DNA of 64,000 bases. It comes from Enterobacteria phage Kha5h. This document shows positions 1,959 through 32,654 of the stretch, piece by piece (within the stretch, counting starts at the first letter, position 1; each line of letters begins with the position of its first letter). The position numbers were made by a program, and so were the translations under genes. The notes beneath the pieces are model-generated. The model worked only from the letters and a program-made list of their open reading frames with translations, ran no database searches and was not told the DNA's origin. The DNA lies in sequence record NC_054905.1; one strand, written 5' to 3'.

Positions 1959-4900
1959 CAGTAAAAGCACCTTCAGTCACTAGTCTCAGAATTTCCAAGT
2001 TATCCGCAAATCAGGTGCAAGTACGCTGGGATGACGTTGGTGCTAATTTCTACTATTTTGTAGAAATCGCTGAGACAAAAACAGACTCGGGGGAAAAACT
2101 CCCGAGTAATCAATACAGATGGATTAATTTAGGATATACAGCAAATAATAGTTTCTTTTTTGATGATGCTGATCCATTAACAACATACATTATTAGAGTA
2201 GCCACAGCTGCGCAAGATTTTGAGCAGTCTGATTGGATTTATACCGAAGAGTTTGAAACTTTTGCTACAAATGCTTATACATTTCAAAACATGATTGAAA
2301 TGCAATTAGCCAATAAATTCATTCAGGAAAAATTTACTCTTAATAATTCTGATTATGTTAATTTTAATAATGACACTATAATGGCTGCATTGATGAATGA
2401 ATCATTTCAATTCAGCCCATCATATGTTGATGTTTCATCAATAAGTAATTTTATTATTGGTGAAAATGAGTATCATGAAATACAGGGCTCTATTCAGCAG
2501 GTATGTAAGGATATTAACCGAGTTTATTTGATGGAATCAGAAGGGATTCTATATCTTTTTGAGCGTTATCAACCTGTAGTTAAAGTATCCAATGATAAAG
2601 GACAAACCTGGAAAGCTGTAAAGCTCTTCAATGACCGCGTAGGATATCCTTTATCTAAGACAGTATATTACCAATCTGCGAACACAACATACGTTCTAGG
2701 ATACGACAAGATTTTCTATGGCCGCAAATCTACTGATGTTAGATGGTCAGCTGACGATGTCAGATTTAGTTCTCAGGATATAACATTTGCTAAACTTGGC
2801 GACCAATTACATTTAGGATTTGATGTAGAAATTTTTGCCACTTACGCGACTTTACCAGCGAATGTATATCGCATTGCAGAAGCTATTACTTGCACCGATG
2901 ATTACATTTACGTTGTCGCCAGAGACAAAGTTAGATACATAAAAACGAGCAATGCACCTATAGATTCTGATCCATTATCTCCAACATATTCGGAAAGGCT
3001 TTTTGAACCTGATACAATGACTATAACCGGAAATCCTAAAGCAGTATGCTATAAAATGGATTCTATCGGTGATAAAGTTTTTGCTCTTATTATTGGTGAA
3101 GTTGAAACATTAAATGCTAATCCTAGAACATCAAAAATAATTGATTCTGCTGATAAAGGAATATATGTTTTAAATCACGACACAAAAACGTGGAAAAGAG
3201 TTTTTGGCAACACTGAAGAAGAAAGAAGACGTATTCAACCGGGGTATGCGAATATGTCAACTGATGGTAAATTAGTTTCTCTATCATCGAGTAATTTTAA
3301 ATTTTTAAGTGATAATGTTGTTAATGACCCTGAAACTGCCGCAAAATATCAGTTAATCGGTGCTGTTAAATATGAATTTCCTCGTGAATGGTTAGCTGAT
3401 AAGCATTATCATATGATGGCATTTATAGCAGATGAAAAGTCTGATTGGGAAACTTTTACTCCTCAGCCGATGAAATACTACGCAGAACCGTTCTTTAACT
3501 GGTCTAAAAAATCTAACACACGTTGTTGGATAAACAACTCTGATAGGGTTGTAGTAGTTTATGCTGATTTAAAATACACCAAGGTTATAGAAAATATTCC
3601 TGAAACATCACCAGATAGATTAGTTCATGAATACTGGGATGATGGCGATTGTACTATAGTAATGCCAAATGTTAAATTCACTGGATTTAAAAAATATGCA
3701 TCTGGGATGCTTTTCTATAAAGCTTCTGGTGAAATAATTTCTTACTATGATTTTAACTATCGTGTTAGAGACACTGTCGAAATTATTTGGAAGCCAACTG
3801 AAGTATTTTTAAAAGCATTTTTACAAAACCAAGAGCATGAAACTCCTTGGTCGCCTGAAGAAGAGCGTGGATTAGCTGACCCTGATTTAAGACCATTGAT
3901 TGGCACAATGATGCCTGATTCTTATTTGTTACAGGATTCTAATTTTGAGGCATTTTGCGAAGCATATATTCAGTATCTTTCTGATGGATATGGAACTCAG
4001 TATAACAATTTACGAAATTTAATTCGTAACAAATATCCACGAGAAGAGCATGCATGGGAATATTTGTGGTCAGAGATATATAAAAGAAACATTTATTTAA
4101 ATGCTGACAAACGTGATGCTGTTACAAGATTTTTTGAATCACGTAGCTATGATTTTTATTCTACTAAAGGAATTGAAGCATCATACAAATTTCTTTTTAA
4201 AGTTCTTTATAATGAAGAGGTTGAAATTGAAATTGAATCTGGGGCTGGTACTGAATATGATATAATCGTTCAATCTGATTCTTTGACTGAAGACTTAGTA
4301 GGACAAACGATTTATACAGCCACAGGAAGATGTAATGTTACTTATATAGAAAGAAGCTATTCTAATGGTAAATTGCAATGGACCGTAACTATTCATAATC
4401 TTTTGGGAAGATTGATTGCCGGTCAAGAAGTTAAAGCAGAAAGACTTCCTAGTTTTGAAGGCGAAATTATTCGTGGAGTTAAAGGGAAGGATTTGCTTCA
4501 AAATAATATAGACTATATTAATAGAAGTCGGTCATATTATGTAATGAAAATTAAATCCAATTTGCCTTCTTCCCGCTGGAAATCTGACGTTATTCGTTTT
4601 GTTCATCCAGTAGGATTTGGATTTATAGCAATTACCCTTTTAACAATGTTTATTAATGTTGGTTTAACTCTTAAACACACAGAGACTATAATTAATAAAT
4701 ACAAAAACTATAAATGGGATTCTGGATTGCCTACTGAATATGCTGATAGAGTAGCTAAATTAACTCCAACCGGTGAAATTGAGCATGATTCAGTAACAGG
4801 CGAAGCAATTTATGAGCCTGGCCCAATGGCTGGCGTAGAATATCCTCTTCCTGATGACTATAATGCTGAAAATAACAATTCAATATTTCAAGGTCAATTG

Positions 4901-23854: not shown

Positions 23855-25420
23855 ATGACTATCAAAACTAAAGCTGAACTTTTGAACAAATGGAAACCAT
23901 TACTGGAAGGTGAAGGTTTACCGGAAATTGCTAATAGCAAACAAGCGATTATCGCTAAAATCTTTGAAAACCAGGAAAAAGATTTCCAGACAGCTCCGGA
24001 ATATAAAGACGAAAAAATTGCTCAGGCATTCGGTTCTTTCTTAACAGAAGCTGAAATCGGTGGTGACCACGGTTACAATGCTACCAACATCGCTGCAGGT
24101 CAGACTTCTGGCGCAGTAACTCAGATTGGCCCGGCTGTTATGGGTATGGTACGTCGTGCTATTCCTAACCTGATTGCTTTCGATATTTGCGGTGTTCAAC
24201 CGATGAGCAGCCCAACCGGTCAGGTATTCGCACTCCGCGCGGTATATGGTAAAGATCCGATCGCTGCCGGTGCTAAAGAAGCATTCCACCCAATGTATGG
24301 TCCAGATGCAATGTTCTCTGGTCAGGGTGCTGCTAAGAAATTCCCAGCTCTGGCTGCTAGCACAGAAACTGTTGTAGGTGACATCTATACTCACTTCTTC
24401 CAGGAAACTGGTACTGTGTATCTGCAAGCTTCCGCTGTAGTAACAATCGATGCTAGTGCTAACGATGCAACTAAACTGGATGCTGAAATTAAGAAACAAA
24501 TGGAAGCTGGTGTACTGGTAGAAATCGCTGAAGGTATGGCTACTTCTATCGCTGAACTCCAGGAAGGTTTCAATGGTTCTACCGATAACCCGTGGAATGA
24601 AATGGGCTTCCGTATCGATAAACAAGTTATCGAAGCTAAATCTCGTCAGCTGAAAGCTGCTTACTCTATCGAATTAGCACAAGACCTCCGCGCTGTTCAC
24701 GGTATGGATGCTGATGCTGAACTGTCTGGTATTCTGGCTACCGAAATCATGCTGGAAATCAACCGCGAAGTTGTTGATTGGATTAACTACTCAGCTCAGG
24801 TTGGTAAATCTGGTATGACCCTGACTCCGGGTTCTAAAGCTGGTGTATTTGACTTCCAGGACCCAATCGATATTCGTGGTGCTCGCTGGGCAGGTGAATC
24901 CTTTAAAGCTCTGTTGTTCCAGATTGACAAAGAAGCAGTTGAAATTGCTCGTCAGACCGGTCGTGGTGAAGGTAACTTCATTATCGCTTCCCGTAACGTA
25001 GTTAACGTTCTGGCTTCAGTTGATACTGGCATTTCTTATGCTGCACAGGGTCTGGCTACCGGCTTTAACACTGATACTACCAAGTCAGTATTTGCTGGTG
25101 TTCTGGGTGGTAAATACCGTGTATATATCGACCAGTATGCTAAACAGGATTATTTCACTGTAGGTTATAAAGGTCCGAACGAAATGGATGCTGGTATTTA
25201 CTATGCTCCATATGTAGCTCTGACTCCGCTGCGTGGTTCCGATCCGAAGAACTTCCAACCAGTAATGGGATTCAAAACTCGTTACGGTATCGGTATCAAC
25301 CCATTTGCAGAATCCGCTGCTCAGGCTCCGGCTTCTCGCATCCAGAGCGGTATGCCTTCTATTCTGAATAGCCTTGGTAAAAACGCTTACTTCCGCCGTG
25401 TATATGTTAAAGGTATCTAA
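23855..25420 (+). CDS. 23: Major capsid protein gp23
   Basis: 521 aa, T4 gp23 length; strong codon bias; followed by UUCG-loop terminator. Confidence 0.95.
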   Translation: MTIKTKAELLNKWKPLLEGEGLPEIANSKQAIIAKIFENQEKDFQTAPEYKDEKIAQAFGSFLTEAEIGGDHGYNATNIAAGQTSGAVTQIGPAVMGMVRRAIPNLIAFDICGVQPMSSPTGQVFALRAVYGKDPIAAGAKEAFHPMYGPDAMFSGQGAAKKFPALAASTETVVGDIYTHFFQETGTVYLQASAVVTIDASANDATKLDAEIKKQMEAGVLVEIAEGMATSIAELQEGFNGSTDNPWNEMGFRIDKQVIEAKSRQLKAAYSIELAQDLRAVHGMDADAELSGILATEIMLEINREVVDWINYSAQVGKSGMTLTPGSKAGVFDFQDPIDIRGARWAGESFKALLFQIDKEAVEIARQTGRGEGNFIIASRNVVNVLASVDTGISYAAQGLATGFNTDTTKSVFAGVLGGKYRVYIDQYAKQDYFTVGYKGPNEMDAGIYYAPYVALTPLRGSDPKNFQPVMGFKTRYGIGINPFAESAAQAPASRIQSGMPSILNSLGKNAYFRRVYVKGI

Positions 25421-25435
25421 TCTTTGACGATTTAA

Positions 25436-25465
25436 GGGACCTTCGGGTCCCTTTAGTTGTTTTTA
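25436..25465 (+). terminator. Rho-independent terminator after gene 23
   Basis: GGGACC TTCG GGTCCC hairpin followed by T-rich tract. Confidence 0.8.
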
Positions 25466-25468
25466 TGG

Positions 25469-25476
25469 TATAAATA
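25469..25476 (+). promoter_or_regulatory. Late promoter TATAAATA for gene 24
   Basis: Exact TATAAATA about 28 nt upstream of the gene 24 ATG. Confidence 0.7.
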
Positions 25477-25503
25477 AATCATATAAACCAAAAGGAAAGC
25501 GCA

Positions 25504-26787
25504 ATGGCTAAAATCAACGAACTTCTGCGCGAATCAACCACAACGAATAGCAACTCAATCGGTCGCCCAAATCTCGTTGCTTTGACTCGCGCTACCACTA
25601 AATTAATATATTCTGACATTGTAGCAACGCAAAGAACTAATCAACCTGTTGCTGCTTTTTATGGTATCAAATACCTTAACCCAGACAATGAATTTACATT
25701 TAAAACTGGTGCTACTTATGCTGGCGAAGCTGGATATGTAGACCGAGAACAAATCACAGAATTAACAGAAGAGTCTAAATTAACTCTCAATAAAGGCGAT
25801 TTATTCAAATATAATAATATCGTTTATAAAGTATTAGAAGATACACCATTTGCTGATATTGAAGAAAGTGATTTAGAATTAGCTCTTCAGATTGCAATTG
25901 TTCTTTTAAAGGTTCGTCTATTTTCTGACGCAGCGTCAACAAGCAAATTTGAAAGCTCTGATAGTGAAATTGCGGATGCTAGATTCCAGATTAATAAATG
26001 GCAAACCGCAGTTAAATCTCGTAAACTTAAAACTGGCATCACAGTTGAATTAGCGCAAGATTTAGAAGCAAATGGATTCGATGCTCCTAATTTCTTGGAA
26101 GATTTGCTTGCAACTGAAATGGCAGATGAAATCAATAAAGATATTCTGCAATCTTTGATTACAGTATCAAAACGCTATAAAGTTACAGGAATTACTGATA
26201 CTGGATTCATTGATTTGAGTTATGCATCTGCACCTGAAGCTGGTCGTTCATTATACCGAATGGTGTGTGAAATGGTTTCGCATATCCAAAAAGAATCAAC
26301 TTATACTGCAACGTTCTGTGTTGCTTCAGCTCGTGCCGCTGCGATTCTTGCTGCATCAGGTTGGTTAAAACATAAACCAGAAGATGACAAATATCTTTCA
26401 CAAAATGCCTACGGGTTCTTAGCTAATGGTTTACCGCTTTATTGTGATACCAACAGCCCATTAGATTATGTAATCGTTGGCGTAGTAGAAAATATCGGTG
26501 AAAAAGAAATTGTTGGATCAATTTTCTATGCTCCGTATACAGAAGGTCTCGACTTAGATGACCCTGAACATGTAGGTGCATTTAAAGTTGTAGTTGATCC
26601 AGAAAGCTTACAGCCGTCTATCGGTTTATTAGTTAGATATGCTTTATCAGCAAATCCTTATACCGTAGCAAAAGATGAAAAAGAAGCAAGAATAATTGAC
26701 GGTGGAGACATGGATAAAATGGCGGGTCGTTCAGATTTGTCTGTTTTATTAGGTGTTAAATTACCAAAAATTATTATTGATGAATAA
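25504..26787 (+). CDS. 24: Capsid vertex protein gp24
   Basis: 427 aa, gp23 paralog position; own TATAAATA promoter at about 25469. Confidence 0.9.
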   Translation: MAKINELLRESTTTNSNSIGRPNLVALTRATTKLIYSDIVATQRTNQPVAAFYGIKYLNPDNEFTFKTGATYAGEAGYVDREQITELTEESKLTLNKGDLFKYNNIVYKVLEDTPFADIEESDLELALQIAIVLLKVRLFSDAASTSKFESSDSEIADARFQINKWQTAVKSRKLKTGITVELAQDLEANGFDAPNFLEDLLATEMADEINKDILQSLITVSKRYKVTGITDTGFIDLSYASAPEAGRSLYRMVCEMVSHIQKESTYTATFCVASARAAAILAASGWLKHKPEDDKYLSQNAYGFLANGLPLYCDTNSPLDYVIVGVVENIGEKEIVGSIFYAPYTEGLDLDDPEHVGAFKVVVDPESLQPSIGLLVRYALSANPYTVAKDEKEARIIDGGDMDKMAGRSDLSVLLGVKLPKIIIDE

Positions 26788-28399: not shown

Positions 28400-29530
28400 T
28401 TATGGATAGGTATAGATGATACCAGTTTCTAAAGCAGTTTTGTGAATGATGTATCCATTACGCGATTCTTGGACATCAACTTCTGGATAATCTTTCATCA
28501 TCTTCTGAAGAGTGTAACGATGCAGGTAGTATTTACTATCTGGATCTTCAGTTTTCCAATCTTTACCTTCTTCAGTCATTTTTTGAATTTCATCCATAAC
28601 CCACCAACCGCACCAGATGTAAGCTGAGCTACGGTGTGGAAGAGGATGAACATAAGGTAATTCACCTTCTGGTTCCGGAGCAACTTTATCAGTTACCTGA
28701 ACTTGACCTTCTGCTGTAATAGTTTTGCTATCATAGTCATCTGCAGTAACGACGGCAGTCACTTCAATAGTTTGACTTCCAACAGATGAAGTATCAACGG
28801 TATATACATTAGTTGACCCTTCTACAGGAGAAGAATCTTTCTTCCATGAATACGCAATTTGCGCTTCTTCTGGAGCATCAGTGACATTAGCGGTAAATGT
28901 AGCCGAAGCATCTTGTTGAACGTTAATAGAAGGAGGAGTCAATGTAACCTGCGGATTCATTGTCTTCTTATTAACTGTTAATGATACTTCATTAGAAGTA
29001 ACTTCCTTTGCATCATAATCTGTCGCGGTTACTTGAGCCACACACTTAATTGTTTTAACTCCGCTTGTGGTAGGAGTGTAATTGAATGTAGTAGAAGTTG
29101 CTTCGCCTACAGGAGAACCGTCAACGTGCCATTGATACGTAGCAGATGCGCCTGGTGGTTGAGAAGCTAAGGCAGCAGTAAATTGAACTGGGGTTCCAAT
29201 TACTCCAGCTGAAGGACTATCGGGAGTTACTGCCAAGGTAGTCGTCTGTGTCTTATTTTGAACTGTGATAGTTGTAGTAGCTTCTGCTGTTTCAGCTTCA
29301 GCTTCTGGAACTGTATTTGTTGCAACTACTTTAATAGTCTTTTGACCGGCAGGTCCCTTTAGTACATAACTAAAAGTTGCTTCAGCTCCATCTTGTGGAA
29401 CATCATCTACAGTCCAAGCATATGTAATAGGTCCATCTCCAGTTTGACCACTGGGTGTAGCAGTAAACTGCTGAGTCTGATCTATAACTCCAGTAGGTGT
29501 TTTAGGAGTTATATCAACTGTAAAAGCCAT
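28400..29530 (-). CDS. hoc: Highly immunogenic outer capsid protein Hoc (Ig-like domains)
   Basis: 376 aa, T4 Hoc length; internally repeated T/V-rich Ig-like segments; terminator hairpin immediately downstream. Confidence 0.9.
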   Translation of the reverse strand: MAFTVDITPKTPTGVIDQTQQFTATPSGQTGDGPITYAWTVDDVPQDGAEATFSYVLKGPAGQKTIKVVATNTVPEAEAETAEATTTITVQNKTQTTTLAVTPDSPSAGVIGTPVQFTAALASQPPGASATYQWHVDGSPVGEATSTTFNYTPTTSGVKTIKCVAQVTATDYDAKEVTSNEVSLTVNKKTMNPQVTLTPPSINVQQDASATFTANVTDAPEEAQIAYSWKKDSSPVEGSTNVYTVDTSSVGSQTIEVTAVVTADDYDSKTITAEGQVQVTDKVAPEPEGELPYVHPLPHRSSAYIWCGWWVMDEIQKMTEEGKDWKTEDPDSKYYLHRYTLQKMMKDYPEVDVQESRNGYIIHKTALETGIIYTYP

Positions 29531-29539
29531 AAGTTATCC

Positions 29540-30220
29540 TTATTTTAATGTTACGAAAGAAGAATTGCGTGTTTCACGAATTAAAACTGATCCGTCACGG
29601 TTAATGTAATAAATTAAGCTAAATAAAGTTTGGTGTGCTGATGCATGCTCAAAACTAGTTGGGTGAGATTTCCAATCCGGAGTTTCAGCAATCCATTGAT
29701 AAATCCACCAAGGAACAGTGCAGAATCCTGGATTTTTTCCAATCAGCTGAAGATTTGGGCTAAAGTTTTCCGGAAGAGTAAATACAGACGGCTTTTCAGA
29801 TTCAATAATCTCAGCTACAGCCTGTTCAAATTTTTCTTCAACAAAAGGAGTATCTTCAATCAAAACATCGGTATTTTCAGGAATTTTATCCTTTTCTACT
29901 ACTTCAATTTTAATGTCAGATTTAACCGGAGAATCAATCAGAAGTGCTGCTTCTGGATTGACTTCTTCATCGTCATATTTTAATCCCTCTGCGGCATCAG
30001 CAGCATCAATTAAGTCTTTAATAGATAACCCATCAGTCTCTGGCATAGGTTCACTAGCAAGCTTCTGGAGGGCTTCTTCAATATCAACAACGATATTATC
30101 AAAAGATTTATTCTTTTTGACCTTTATACCAAACTGTTCAGCATATTCAGCTAATTTAGCTTTAGCTTCTTTATTATCATCAAGAGCCTTCAGCTCTGCA
30201 ATATAATCTTTATCTATCAT
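29540..30220 (-). CDS. inh: Inhibitor of prohead protease Inh
   Basis: 226 aa, synteny next to hoc. Confidence 0.8.
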   Translation of the reverse strand: MIDKDYIAELKALDDNKEAKAKLAEYAEQFGIKVKKNKSFDNIVVDIEEALQKLASEPMPETDGLSIKDLIDAADAAEGLKYDDEEVNPEAALLIDSPVKSDIKIEVVEKDKIPENTDVLIEDTPFVEEKFEQAVAEIIESEKPSVFTLPENFSPNLQLIGKNPGFCTVPWWIYQWIAETPDWKSHPTSFEHASAHQTLFSLIYYINRDGSVLIRETRNSSFVTLK

Positions 30221-30233
30221 AATATTTCCTCAG

Positions 30234-30241
30234 TATAAATA
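30234..30241 (+). promoter_or_regulatory. TATAAATA late-promoter motif upstream of segE
   Basis: Exact TATAAATA about 30 nt upstream of the segE ATG. Confidence 0.5.
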
Positions 30242-30269
30242 TAGATATATTTATTACTCGGAAAATAGT

Positions 30270-30887
30270 ATGTACCACTTTGTATATGAAACAACAAATC
30301 TAATAAATGGTAAAAAGTATATAGGAAAACACTCTACTGATGACTTGAATGATGGTTACCTTGGTTCCGGTAAGGCAATTCAGCAGGCTATAAAGAAATA
30401 TGGTGAAAACAATTTCTCTAGAACAATACTAAAAGAGTTTAAAACTTCCGAAGAAGCGTACATGTATGAAGAAGAAATTATAACTCCTGAACTAATAAAA
30501 AGCAAAAATTATTATAATATGAAACCTGGTGGAATTGGTGGAATTGTTATGACTACAGAGGTTATAGCAAAGATGAAAGAATCTTCCGCTAAAAGATTTG
30601 AAAACTCACCAGGCACGGTATTAGGTAAAACTTGTTACACTAATGGAACTAAAAATATTTTTATTAAACCTGGAGAACTTGTTCCAGAAGGATTTGTAAA
30701 AGGGATGGTTCATCCTAATAGAAAGTCCAGAAAAGGATGTAAAGTCAAACCGACTACCACAGGAACTTTTTGGGTCAATAATGGTGCAATAAATAAATTA
30801 ATACAACCAGACGGTATTATTCCCGACGGATTTATTAAAGGTCGTCTCATGAAAAGAGATTCTAAAGGCAAATTTAGTAAGGCATAA
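30270..30887 (+). mobile_element. segE: SegE-like GIY-YIG homing endonuclease (free-standing)
   Basis: 205 aa; N-terminal GIY-YIG-type motif YHFVYETTNLINGKKYIGKHS; sits between inh and uvsW. Confidence 0.8.
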
Positions 30888-30889
30888 TT

Positions 30890-32398
30890 ATGGATATTAA
30901 AGTACATTTTCACGACTTCAGTCATGTACGCATCGATTGTGAAGAGAGCACGTTCCACGAATTAAGAGATTTCTTTTCGTTTGAAGCTGATGGGTATAGA
31001 TTTAACCCTCGCTTCAGATATGGCAACTGGGATGGACGAATCCGTCTTTTAGATTATAATCGTCTTCTTCCATTCGGCTTAGTCGGGCAAATTAAAAAGT
31101 TCTGTGATAACTTTGGCTATAAAGCCTGGATTGACCCGCAAATTAACGAAAAAGAAGAATTATCAAGAAAAGATTTTGATGAATGGCTTTCTAAATTAGA
31201 AATCTATTCAGGAAATAAAAGAATTGAACCGCACTGGTATCAAAAAGATGCAGTGTTCGAAGGATTAGTTAATCGTCGTAGAATTCTTAATCTTCCAACA
31301 TCCGCTGGTAAATCGTTAATTCAAGCTTTGCTTGCGCGATATTATTTGGAAAATTATGAAGGTAAAATTCTTATCATTGTTCCAACAACTGCTCTGACAA
31401 CTCAGATGGCTGATGACTTCGTTGACTATCGTTTATTCAGTCATGCAATGATAAAGAAAATTGGTGGCGGAGCATCAAAAGATGATAAATATAAAAATGA
31501 TGCACCAGTCGTTGTTGGTACATGGCAAACTGTAGTTAAACAACCGAAAGAATGGTTCTCACAGTTTGGAATGATGATGAATGATGAATGCCATCTTGCT
31601 ACAGGAAAAAGTATTTCATCTATCATATCAGGTTTAAATAACTGCATGTTCAAATTCGGTTTGTCCGGTTCATTACGTGATGGCAAAGCTAATATCATGC
31701 AGTATGTTGGAATGTTTGGTGAAATATTTAAGCCAGTAACGACTTCTAAATTAATGGAAGATGGGCAAGTAACTGAGCTAAAAATTAATAGTATTTTTCT
31801 TCGCTATCCCGATGAGTTCACTACTAAATTAAAGGGAAAAACTTACCAAGAAGAAATAAAAATTATTACTGGGCTTAGTAAAAGAAATAAATGGATCGCT
31901 AAATTAGCTATTAAGCTTGCGCAAAAAGATGAAAACGCTTTTGTCATGTTTAAACATGTATCACATGGTAAAGCTATTTTCGATTTAATTAAAAATGAAT
32001 ACGATAAAGTTTATTACGTATCAGGGGAAGTTGATACCGAAACCCGCAATATAATGAAAACCTTAGCTGAAAATGGTAAAGGAATAATTATAGTAGCGAG
32101 TTATGGTGTATTTTCTACTGGTATTTCAGTTAAAAATCTGCATCACGTTGTTTTAGCGCATGGTGTTAAATCTAAAATTATTGTATTGCAAACAATCGGT
32201 CGTGTATTACGTAAGCATGGTTCTAAGACAATAGCAACCGTTTGGGACCTCATAGATGATTGTGGCGTTAAGCCAAAATCTGCTAATACGAAAAAGAAAT
32301 ATGTTCATTTGAACTATCTTTTAAAACACGGCATTGATCGTATTCAGCGCTACGCAGATGAAAAATTTAATTACGTAATGAAAACAGTTAATTTATAA
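30890..32398 (+). CDS. uvsW: UvsW SF2 DNA/RNA helicase
   Basis: 502 aa; Walker A PTSAGKS and DECH box; followed by UUCG hairpin. Confidence 0.9.
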   Translation: MDIKVHFHDFSHVRIDCEESTFHELRDFFSFEADGYRFNPRFRYGNWDGRIRLLDYNRLLPFGLVGQIKKFCDNFGYKAWIDPQINEKEELSRKDFDEWLSKLEIYSGNKRIEPHWYQKDAVFEGLVNRRRILNLPTSAGKSLIQALLARYYLENYEGKILIIVPTTALTTQMADDFVDYRLFSHAMIKKIGGGASKDDKYKNDAPVVVGTWQTVVKQPKEWFSQFGMMMNDECHLATGKSISSIISGLNNCMFKFGLSGSLRDGKANIMQYVGMFGEIFKPVTTSKLMEDGQVTELKINSIFLRYPDEFTTKLKGKTYQEEIKIITGLSKRNKWIAKLAIKLAQKDENAFVMFKHVSHGKAIFDLIKNEYDKVYYVSGEVDTETRNIMKTLAENGKGIIIVASYGVFSTGISVKNLHHVVLAHGVKSKIIVLQTIGRVLRKHGSKTIATVWDLIDDCGVKPKSANTKKKYVHLNYLLKHGIDRIQRYADEKFNYVMKTVNL

Positions 32399-32410: not shown

Positions 32411-32423
32411 TTTGGAGAAAAAG

Positions 32424-32654
32424 ATGTTACTAGAATTTAAACAATTTCTTTATGAAGCTTCTATTGATGAATTTATGGGTAAAATTGCCTCTTGTCAAAC
32501 ATTAGAAGGTTTAGAAGAACTTGAAGCTTATTATAAGAAAAGAGTCAAAGAAACTGAATTAAAAGATACTGATGACATCTCTGTGAGAGATGCTTTGGCA
32601 GGAAAAAGAGCTGAATTAGAAGATTCAGACGATGAAGTAGAAGAAAGCTTTTAA
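32424..32654 (+). CDS. uvsW.1: UvsW.1 small acidic protein
   Basis: Track ORF begins at TTG 32412; internal ATG gives 76 aa as in T4 UvsW.1. Confidence 0.8.
   Translation: MLLEFKQFLYEASIDEFMGKIASCQTLEGLEELEAYYKKRVKETELKDTDDISVRDALAGKRAELEDSDDEVEESF

Follow-up and report, generated by a model that had tools for sequence, protein, structure and literature searches.

Since the 1990s, the segE gene has been a textbook case of a free-standing homing endonuclease. In 1997, Kadyrov et al. reportedly located the SegE site of phage RB30 at the uvsW 5′ end, and T4 DNA is said to have been cut less efficiently.

T4 SegE cleaves the uvsW gene of segE-less phages, and its homing proceeds by repair of the double-strand break (Kadyrov 1997; cited in both PMC2988022 and PMC2330249). 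In Table 1 of PMC2988022, segE is listed as a free-standing gene of the GIY-YIG class with demonstrated activity, inserted between inh and uvsW and cleaving uvsW. There is a slight disagreement about the cleavage site, which is given as “uvsW” in PMC2988022 and as the intergenic stretch separating hoc.1 and uvsW in PMC2330249. In crosses between T4 and RB30, segE homing reaches almost 100%; it requires an intact segE gene and homology, and is accompanied by co-conversion (PMC2330249). Two other proteins provide useful comparisons: SegD of T4, for which activity has not been demonstrated (PMC2988022, Table 1), and the intron-encoded enzyme I-TevI.

Here, we describe the inh–uvsW region of Enterobacteria phage Kha5h (NC_054905.1). 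The window that was analyzed is a stretch of 64,000 nucleotides of this record, and all positions given below are those of the window.

The segE gene and its neighbors

The list of open reading frames in the 64-kb window includes a 205-aa ORF that runs from an ATG to a TAA codon at 30270–30887 on the + strand. The protein starts with MYHFVYETTNLINGKKYIGKH, which includes F-V-Y(6) followed by Y(17)-I-G. An ORF of this length and strand, with an N-terminal GIY-YIG motif, had been pointed out in an earlier sequence-only reading of the same DNA, and both the ORF and the motif were confirmed. It lies between two genes that could be identified by family and domain matches:

29540–30220, − strand: inh, prohead protease inhibitor, 226 aa (PHROG 1051, E = 2.7e-102; annotated inh in T4T)
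30270–30887, + strand: segE coding sequence, 205 aa plus TAA (ORF list; 204 of 205 aa shared with T4T SegE)
30890–32398, + strand: uvsW helicase, 502 aa (PF21241 UvsW_N, 148 bits, plus helicase domains; annotated uvsW in T4T)

With inh on the left on the − strand and uvsW on the right on the + strand, the two genes form a divergent pair, and segE, which is co-oriented with uvsW, fills the 669-bp gap between them (30221–30889). The sequence-only reading had given the size of this slot correctly as about 670 bp, but had described the pair as convergent, which it is not. The segE stop codon (30885–30887) is separated from the uvsW ATG at 30890 by only 2 nt, and the same spacing of stop codon, 2 nt and ATG is present in T4T, in RB14 and at the Gelderlandvirus loci described below. 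The gene has its own start and stop codons between two other genes, uvsW is uninterrupted, and there is no intron or intein host. The gene order hoc-inh-segE-uvsW-uvsW.1 is identical in T4T.

(The downstream end of this gene set also has a bearing on the T4 annotation. In the window, the 502-aa uvsW is followed by a separate small ORF, uvsW.1, at 32412–32654, as in T4T. The RefSeq T4 record, NC_000866.4, has a fused uvsW of 1764 nt that carries a sequence-discrepancy note; the window supports the split version.)

A megablast search of GenBank phages with positions 29500–31500 returned 686 records, nearly all from Tequatrovirus. Over this 2-kb region, phage Aplg8 was 99.2% and T4 98.3% identical to the window, and the matching ORF is annotated as segE or as a homing endonuclease in T4, T4T, RB14, Aplg8 and AR1. 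The SegE protein of the window aligned with that of T4T without gaps over its full length and was identical at 204 of 205 positions. The sole change, E97 in place of D97, is conservative and falls in the linker, and at the nucleotide level the ORF differs from T4 segE at five positions. T4 SegE (NP_049795/ADJ39903) has the same length, the same slot, the same junctions and the same TATAAATA motif upstream, in a layout that matches T4T and NC_000866. The near-identity of the proteins together with the shared slot makes the window protein the orthologue of T4 SegE.

The ORF scored 36.5 bits against PF19835 (SegE_GIY-YIG), above the cut-off of 25, and fell slightly short of the cut-off for the generic GIY-YIG family PF01541 (21.5 bits, cut-off 22.6). 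It also matched PHROG 314, “homing endonuclease” (E = 1.3e-43), and 1418 SegE homologues were found at E ≤ 1e-3 in a large protein collection. No SegE paralogues were found in the 64-kb window by tblastn or with the family HMM applied to all six-frame ORFs. We also considered whether the ORF could be a chance reading frame or a mis-annotation in AT-rich intergenic DNA (GC 36%). This idea is refuted by the 1418 homologues, the family models, the confidently predicted fold and the conservation of the frame across genera.

We are therefore all but certain that the ORF is segE, a GIY-YIG homing endonuclease gene of the T4-type phages that is free-standing and usually lies between inh and uvsW, as it does here. 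The sequence-only reading had proposed a free-standing GIY-YIG homing endonuclease at this location, which is borne out by the identity of 204/205 residues with T4 SegE. It had the family right, although it did not recognize the ORF as a named and experimentally characterized gene.

The phage itself is T4-like, but not T4: it is ≈98% identical to T4 in the segE region and lacks segD. Gene 23 ends at about 25423 and gene 24 starts at 25504, leaving a gap of ≈80 nt (25420–25504), so that the window phage carries segE without segD. In T4 (NC_000866), segD occupies this gap with 672 nt and is encoded on the opposite strand; the gene is absent from the window.

The catalytic domain

The N-terminal part of SegE corresponds to the nuclease domain:

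30270–30554, + strand: N-terminal GIY-YIG catalytic domain, aa 1–95 (Pfam, hhalign, AF2 and Foldseek)

The motif residues are F4-V5-Y6, Y17-I18-G19, E67 and N83, with the GIY and YIG elements about 10 residues apart. We aligned 65 full-length homologues and predicted the structure of SegE with AF2 from that alignment. Among the 65 homologues, Y6, Y17, G19 and N83 were invariant, and E67 was at least 90% conserved.

A phmmer search against the PDB sequences found no GIY-YIG entry and missed I-TevI; its best match, with E = 0.008, was a chance hit to the tail tube protein of a phage. Since comparison of single sequences was too weak in this case, we used profile alignment and fold comparison instead. 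When the SegE profile was aligned with I-TevI by hhalign over aa 4–93, Y6 was paired with Y6, Y17 with Y17, E67 with E75 and N83 with N90 of I-TevI. (The I-TevI query sequence agrees with 1MK0 and 1LN0 except for the engineered mutation in each entry.) The alignment of these four residues supports the assignment made from the sequence alone, which depended on a match between the N-terminal domain and the GIY-YIG catalytic residues.

The AF2 model had a mean pLDDT of 85.6, with values of 93–98 for aa 1–80 and 85 for aa 81–90. It contains strands at aa 2–10, 16–23 and 49–57 and helices at aa 35–44 and 60–70, and the model and the Foldseek comparison both correspond to the three-stranded, antiparallel α/β fold of the family. 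The top three matches in a Foldseek search of the PDB were 1MK0, 1LN0_B and 1LN0_A, all of them the I-TevI catalytic domain, with a probability of 1.00, target-normalized TM scores of 0.61–0.65 and 26–27% identity; all other matches had E > 2. SegE and I-TevI thus share the same fold with the GIY/YIG tyrosines, the glutamate and the asparagine aligned, and both are two-part proteins. They differ in that I-TevI is intron-encoded and has helix α1 with R27, whereas SegE is free-standing and lacks that helix in the alignment; overall identity is 26–29%.

The lack of the helix appears in hhalign as a 9-residue gap opposite A21–K29 of I-TevI, which includes helix α1 and the catalytic R27. In the model, aa 24–34 form a loop rather than a helix, and this region (aa 21–35, 30330–30374) contains the invariant residues D28, Y30 and G32-S33-G34. 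Across the 65 homologues, the N-terminal domain has no arginine that is always kept, the conserved basic residues being K15, H21 and K43. T4 SegD, also a free-standing protein, is similar in this respect: its catalytic domain is 46% identical to that of SegE over 95 aa and shares the GKxYIGxH...DGYxGSG pattern. The C-terminal half of SegD is unrelated to that of SegE, and its gene is located elsewhere, on the opposite strand in the interval from gene 23 to gene 24.

As judged from these alignments, the missing R27 helix is a trait of the whole SegE/SegD (PF19835) subfamily, including the active T4 SegE. Because T4 SegE is active, the absence of the helix is no argument against function. One tentative explanation, which we consider possible but doubtful, is that the PF19835 domain is a reduced GIY-YIG variant without helix α1 and its arginine, which is nearly universal elsewhere, and in which the D28-G-Y30-x-G-S-G loop and/or H21 might substitute. 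This explanation draws on a single profile alignment and a single predicted structure. A literature search on I-TevI Arg27 and SegD found nothing on whether Seg proteins lack the arginine.

The C-terminal half

The remainder of the protein is presumed to bind DNA and contains two copies of a short module:

30555–30884, + strand: C-terminal half, aa 96–205, presumed DNA-binding (AF2, family HMM)
30627–30710, + strand: β-hairpin module 1, aa ≈120–147 (AF2 and family HMM)
30762–30848, + strand: β-hairpin module 2, aa ≈165–193 (AF2 and family HMM)

The AF2 model has a helix at aa 96–112, followed by two pairs of strands at aa 121–124/129–132 and 167–170/175–178. The two hairpins carry tandem copies of the motif (Y/W)xxNGxxNxxIxPxxxxPxGFxKG, and because both match the same positions, 156–213, of the family HMM, they are copies of one motif. 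Residues G165, W168, G172, G191 and R192 were among the most conserved in the 65 homologues.

A Pfam scan with the C-terminal half alone matched no family, and a Foldseek search of the PDB with the full-length model returned no match to this half. The hairpin motif does match an HNH-endonuclease PHROG at its C-terminus, suggesting that the hairpin may be a DNA-binding module common to different classes of homing endonucleases. Judging from the two-domain architecture of I-TevI, the C-terminal half is most likely the DNA-recognition part of the protein.

Boundaries of the segE element

The extent of the element was determined by comparison with phages that have an empty site:

30258–30895, + strand: segE element, 638 bp, absent from segE-less relatives (by comparison with RB18, Lutter and four IMG/VR genomes)

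Up to position 30257, the window and the segE-less phages have the same sequence, and homology restarts at ATTAAAGTACATTTT (30896), so that the 638-bp segment takes the place of 22 bp (ATGGTATTTAGACATGACTGAC) in the empty site. MAFFT misplaced the right flank in alignments with the empty-site phages, and the boundaries were therefore set by anchored comparisons. The junctions at 30257/30258 and 30895/30896 were the same in all 12 genomes compared, six with segE and six without.

Besides segE and the ribosome-binding region of that gene, the element carries the uvsW ribosome-binding site and the first two uvsW codons. The start of uvsW is thus altered by the insertion: the protein begins with MDIK... 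in the window and with MTDIK... in the empty-site phages.

Transcription and translation signals

Four sequence signals were located in and next to the element:

30234–30241, + strand: TATAAATA, late-promoter motif (exact match, 28 nt before the segE ATG)
30248–30255, − strand: AATAAATA, differs from the late-promoter consensus at one position and faces inh (from a scan; a − strand promoter is annotated there in Lutter)
30788–30795, + strand: AATAAATA, candidate embedded late promoter for uvsW (from a one-mismatch scan; in the 3′ part of segE)
30879–30882, + strand: AAGG, Shine-Dalgarno-like sequence for uvsW, in the last segE codons and 7 nt before the ATG at 30890 (read from the sequence)

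The octamer TATAAATA occurs 13 times on the + strand and five times on the − strand of the window, compared to about seven per strand expected from the base composition. Since it is not rare, the octamer by itself is weak evidence, and its weight comes from its intergenic position, its conservation and the annotation of promoters at this place. It was identical in 12 of 12 genomes compared, and its position bears a promoter annotation in Lutter, which lacks segE, and that of a predicted late promoter in fPS-2, which carries it. In the segE-less phages, TATAAATA lies ≈29 nt upstream of uvsW, directly before that gene. As the motif is located in the flank that is common to the segE-less phages, segE was inserted behind a pre-existing promoter. 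The sequence-only reading had noted a late-promoter motif just upstream of the ORF; the motif is there as an exact match, but it lies outside the element, in the conserved flank that represents the ancestral promoter region of uvsW.

Transcription of segE starts from a promoter in the non-coding DNA upstream of it, and segE itself contains embedded promoters that serve the downstream gene (PMC2988022). The TATAAATA motif in the window probably drives segE, and uvsW by read-through. Tentatively, the AATAAATA sequence at 30788–30795 may be the uvsW promoter described in PMC2988022 as embedded in segE. No sigma-70 promoters or intrinsic terminators were detected in 30100–31000, as expected for a late-transcribed region of T4.

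The signals supplied to uvsW raise the question of whether segE is still a homing gene at all. It could be a decaying or domesticated remnant, inactive in homing and kept for the uvsW ribosome-binding site, start region and perhaps promoter that it provides. The element does carry the AAGG ribosome-binding site and the start codon of uvsW, and the embedded promoters favor retention of segE (PMC2988022); in addition, the canonical GIY-YIG arginine is unaligned in SegE. However, the ORF is intact in all six segE-carrying genomes that were compared, with 0–4 aa differences, and the catalytic residues Y6, Y17, E67 and N83 are conserved. The nearly identical T4 protein is active and homes at almost 100%, and the lack of R27 is common to the family in general, including the active T4 SegE, and does not represent a lesion of the window copy. 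We consider such a remnant highly improbable.

Presence and absence of segE among related phages

The sequence-only reading had proposed that the gene is mobile and variably present among T-even relatives, and a comparison of the inh–uvsW interval upholds this, with about 160 occupied and about 450 empty records. In the megablast search with the 2-kb region, 157 of the 686 records covered the full length and thus have an occupied slot, these counts being of records, with some phages included as both GenBank and RefSeq copies. A long series of other records covered only 68% of the region, with 1385 bp instead of 2001 bp and no endonuclease annotated. When only the slot was used as the blastn query, 167 records covered at least 80% of it, while the remainder matched just the first 37 bases.

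The reverse comparison, with a 300-bp empty-junction query from RB18, was fully covered by 448 records, including T2 and RB32; phages with segE covered just the left 46% of this query. Roughly one quarter of the related records therefore have segE. A wider sample from IMG/VR showed inh and uvsW to be adjacent and divergent in most Tevenvirinae, with a gap of ≈50 bp. (A scan of IMG/VR with the UvsW N-terminus yielded only four close relatives, since this collection is dereplicated, and additional segE-carrying genomes were added singly.)

A uvsW variant linked to segE

The phages with and without segE also differ in the gene that follows it:

30896–31025, + strand: variant uvsW 5′ end, fully linked to segE (six genomes with segE, six without)

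Between the two groups of six genomes there were 28 fixed differences, all within 30911–31025 (≈115 bp), whereas the next ≈870 bp had no fixed differences and contained polymorphisms common to both groups. A direct comparison of the window with RB18 gave the same distribution: there were ≈32 differences in 30911–31025 and four in 31026–31500, compared to 10 in 758 bp of the left flank. Most changes in the variant block are synonymous. A few change the protein: H8 vs Y, R41-F-R vs K-Y-K, and N46 vs H.

The block is not entirely uniform among the segE-carrying phages. At 30985, 30988 and 30994, the window has the bases of the segE-less phages (GAA GCT GAT GGG), whereas the five other genomes with segE have GAG GCC GAT GGA. 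This mosaic patch (30985–30994) suggests a past conversion or recombination event inside the block.

A diverged target linked to the element is what would be expected if the target lies in the uvsW 5′ end and a poorly cleaved version of it is co-converted with segE. From the published statement that SegE cleaves uvsW (PMC2988022), we infer that the block probably contains an altered, self-protected SegE target, and it is most likely that the substitutions in the block make the DNA of the phage itself less prone to cleavage.

The same observations bear on a different view of the gene, in which the nuclease chiefly benefits the phage, through marker exclusion or through recombination or amplification near uvsW, and homing is a by-product. 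Seg endonucleases underlie the exclusion of T2 markers by T4, and SegB is reported in a 2026 paper to promote the amplification of anti-defence loci (PMC13096335). Persistence of segE in about one quarter of the related records also fits with a benefit to the phage. However, the 638-bp element holds segE alone, with no obviously beneficial gene alongside, and the presence or absence of the element, its sharp boundaries and the linked target variant are those predicted for a selfish homing element. This view also overlaps with the homing explanation and does not replace it. We regard a primary role in phage fitness as unlikely, and favor homing as the main explanation for the presence of segE.

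SegE-like genes in other genera

SegE homologues were found in the same slot in two Gelderlandvirus genomes (64–66% aa identity) and in one additional contig (48%). These genes, in STP4-a, CGG4-1 and the IMG/VR contig L009, lie between inh and uvsW in the same orientation as in the window, and are diverged and belong to other genera. As in the window, the SegE-like ORF ends 2 nt before uvsW at the Gelderlandvirus loci.

In Salmonella phage STP4-a (L004), the segE-like gene is annotated with 136 aa (1718–2128). The similarity to SegE runs upstream of this start, beginning at codon 2 of SegE: a tblastn match extended over 1514–2125, and a 211-aa ORF starts from a GTG at 1493 (L004 1493–2128). 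The deposited start of this gene is therefore probably too far downstream.

In some distant relatives, uvsW itself was found to be interrupted. In one contig, L032, an HNH ORF is located at 2704–3438 (PF01844, 22.5 bits). In STP4-a, uvsW is interrupted by a nuclease-like ORF (L004 3102–3977) with sub-threshold NUMOD3 and TnsA-like matches. It looks like uvsW is a recurrent landing site for homing elements.

A model for segE homing

By analogy with the published work on T4 SegE, the cleavage and homing activities described for T4 would also apply to the allele in the window. In a late mixed infection, SegE would make a site-specific double-strand break in the uvsW 5′ end of a co-infecting relative without segE. 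The N-terminal domain would cut, while the C-terminal helix and the two hairpin modules presumably recognize the DNA target. The break would be resected and repaired by homologous recombination with the segE-carrying genome as the template, and repair would copy segE and its flanks into the recipient. Such intronless homing would be accompanied by co-conversion and marker exclusion. The element sits between the pre-existing inh–uvsW late promoter and uvsW, and provides the ribosome-binding site and start codon for uvsW.

Implications

The segE gene is already known and well studied, and the copy in the window, one amino acid away from that of T4, adds little new biology. What is gained is a firm gene name for the GIY-YIG ORF and a corrected orientation of the neighboring genes. 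The base-level anatomy of the locus, with its 638-bp insert, borrowed promoter, supplied uvsW signals and 115-bp target variant, can serve as a reference for identifying similar elements in less-studied phages.

The absence of the R27 helix is the only point that is perhaps of specialist interest. It concerns the family as a whole and not this window in particular. If the reduced-domain interpretation is true, the SegE/SegD domain would represent a distinct active-site solution within the GIY-YIG superfamily, given that T4 SegE is active.
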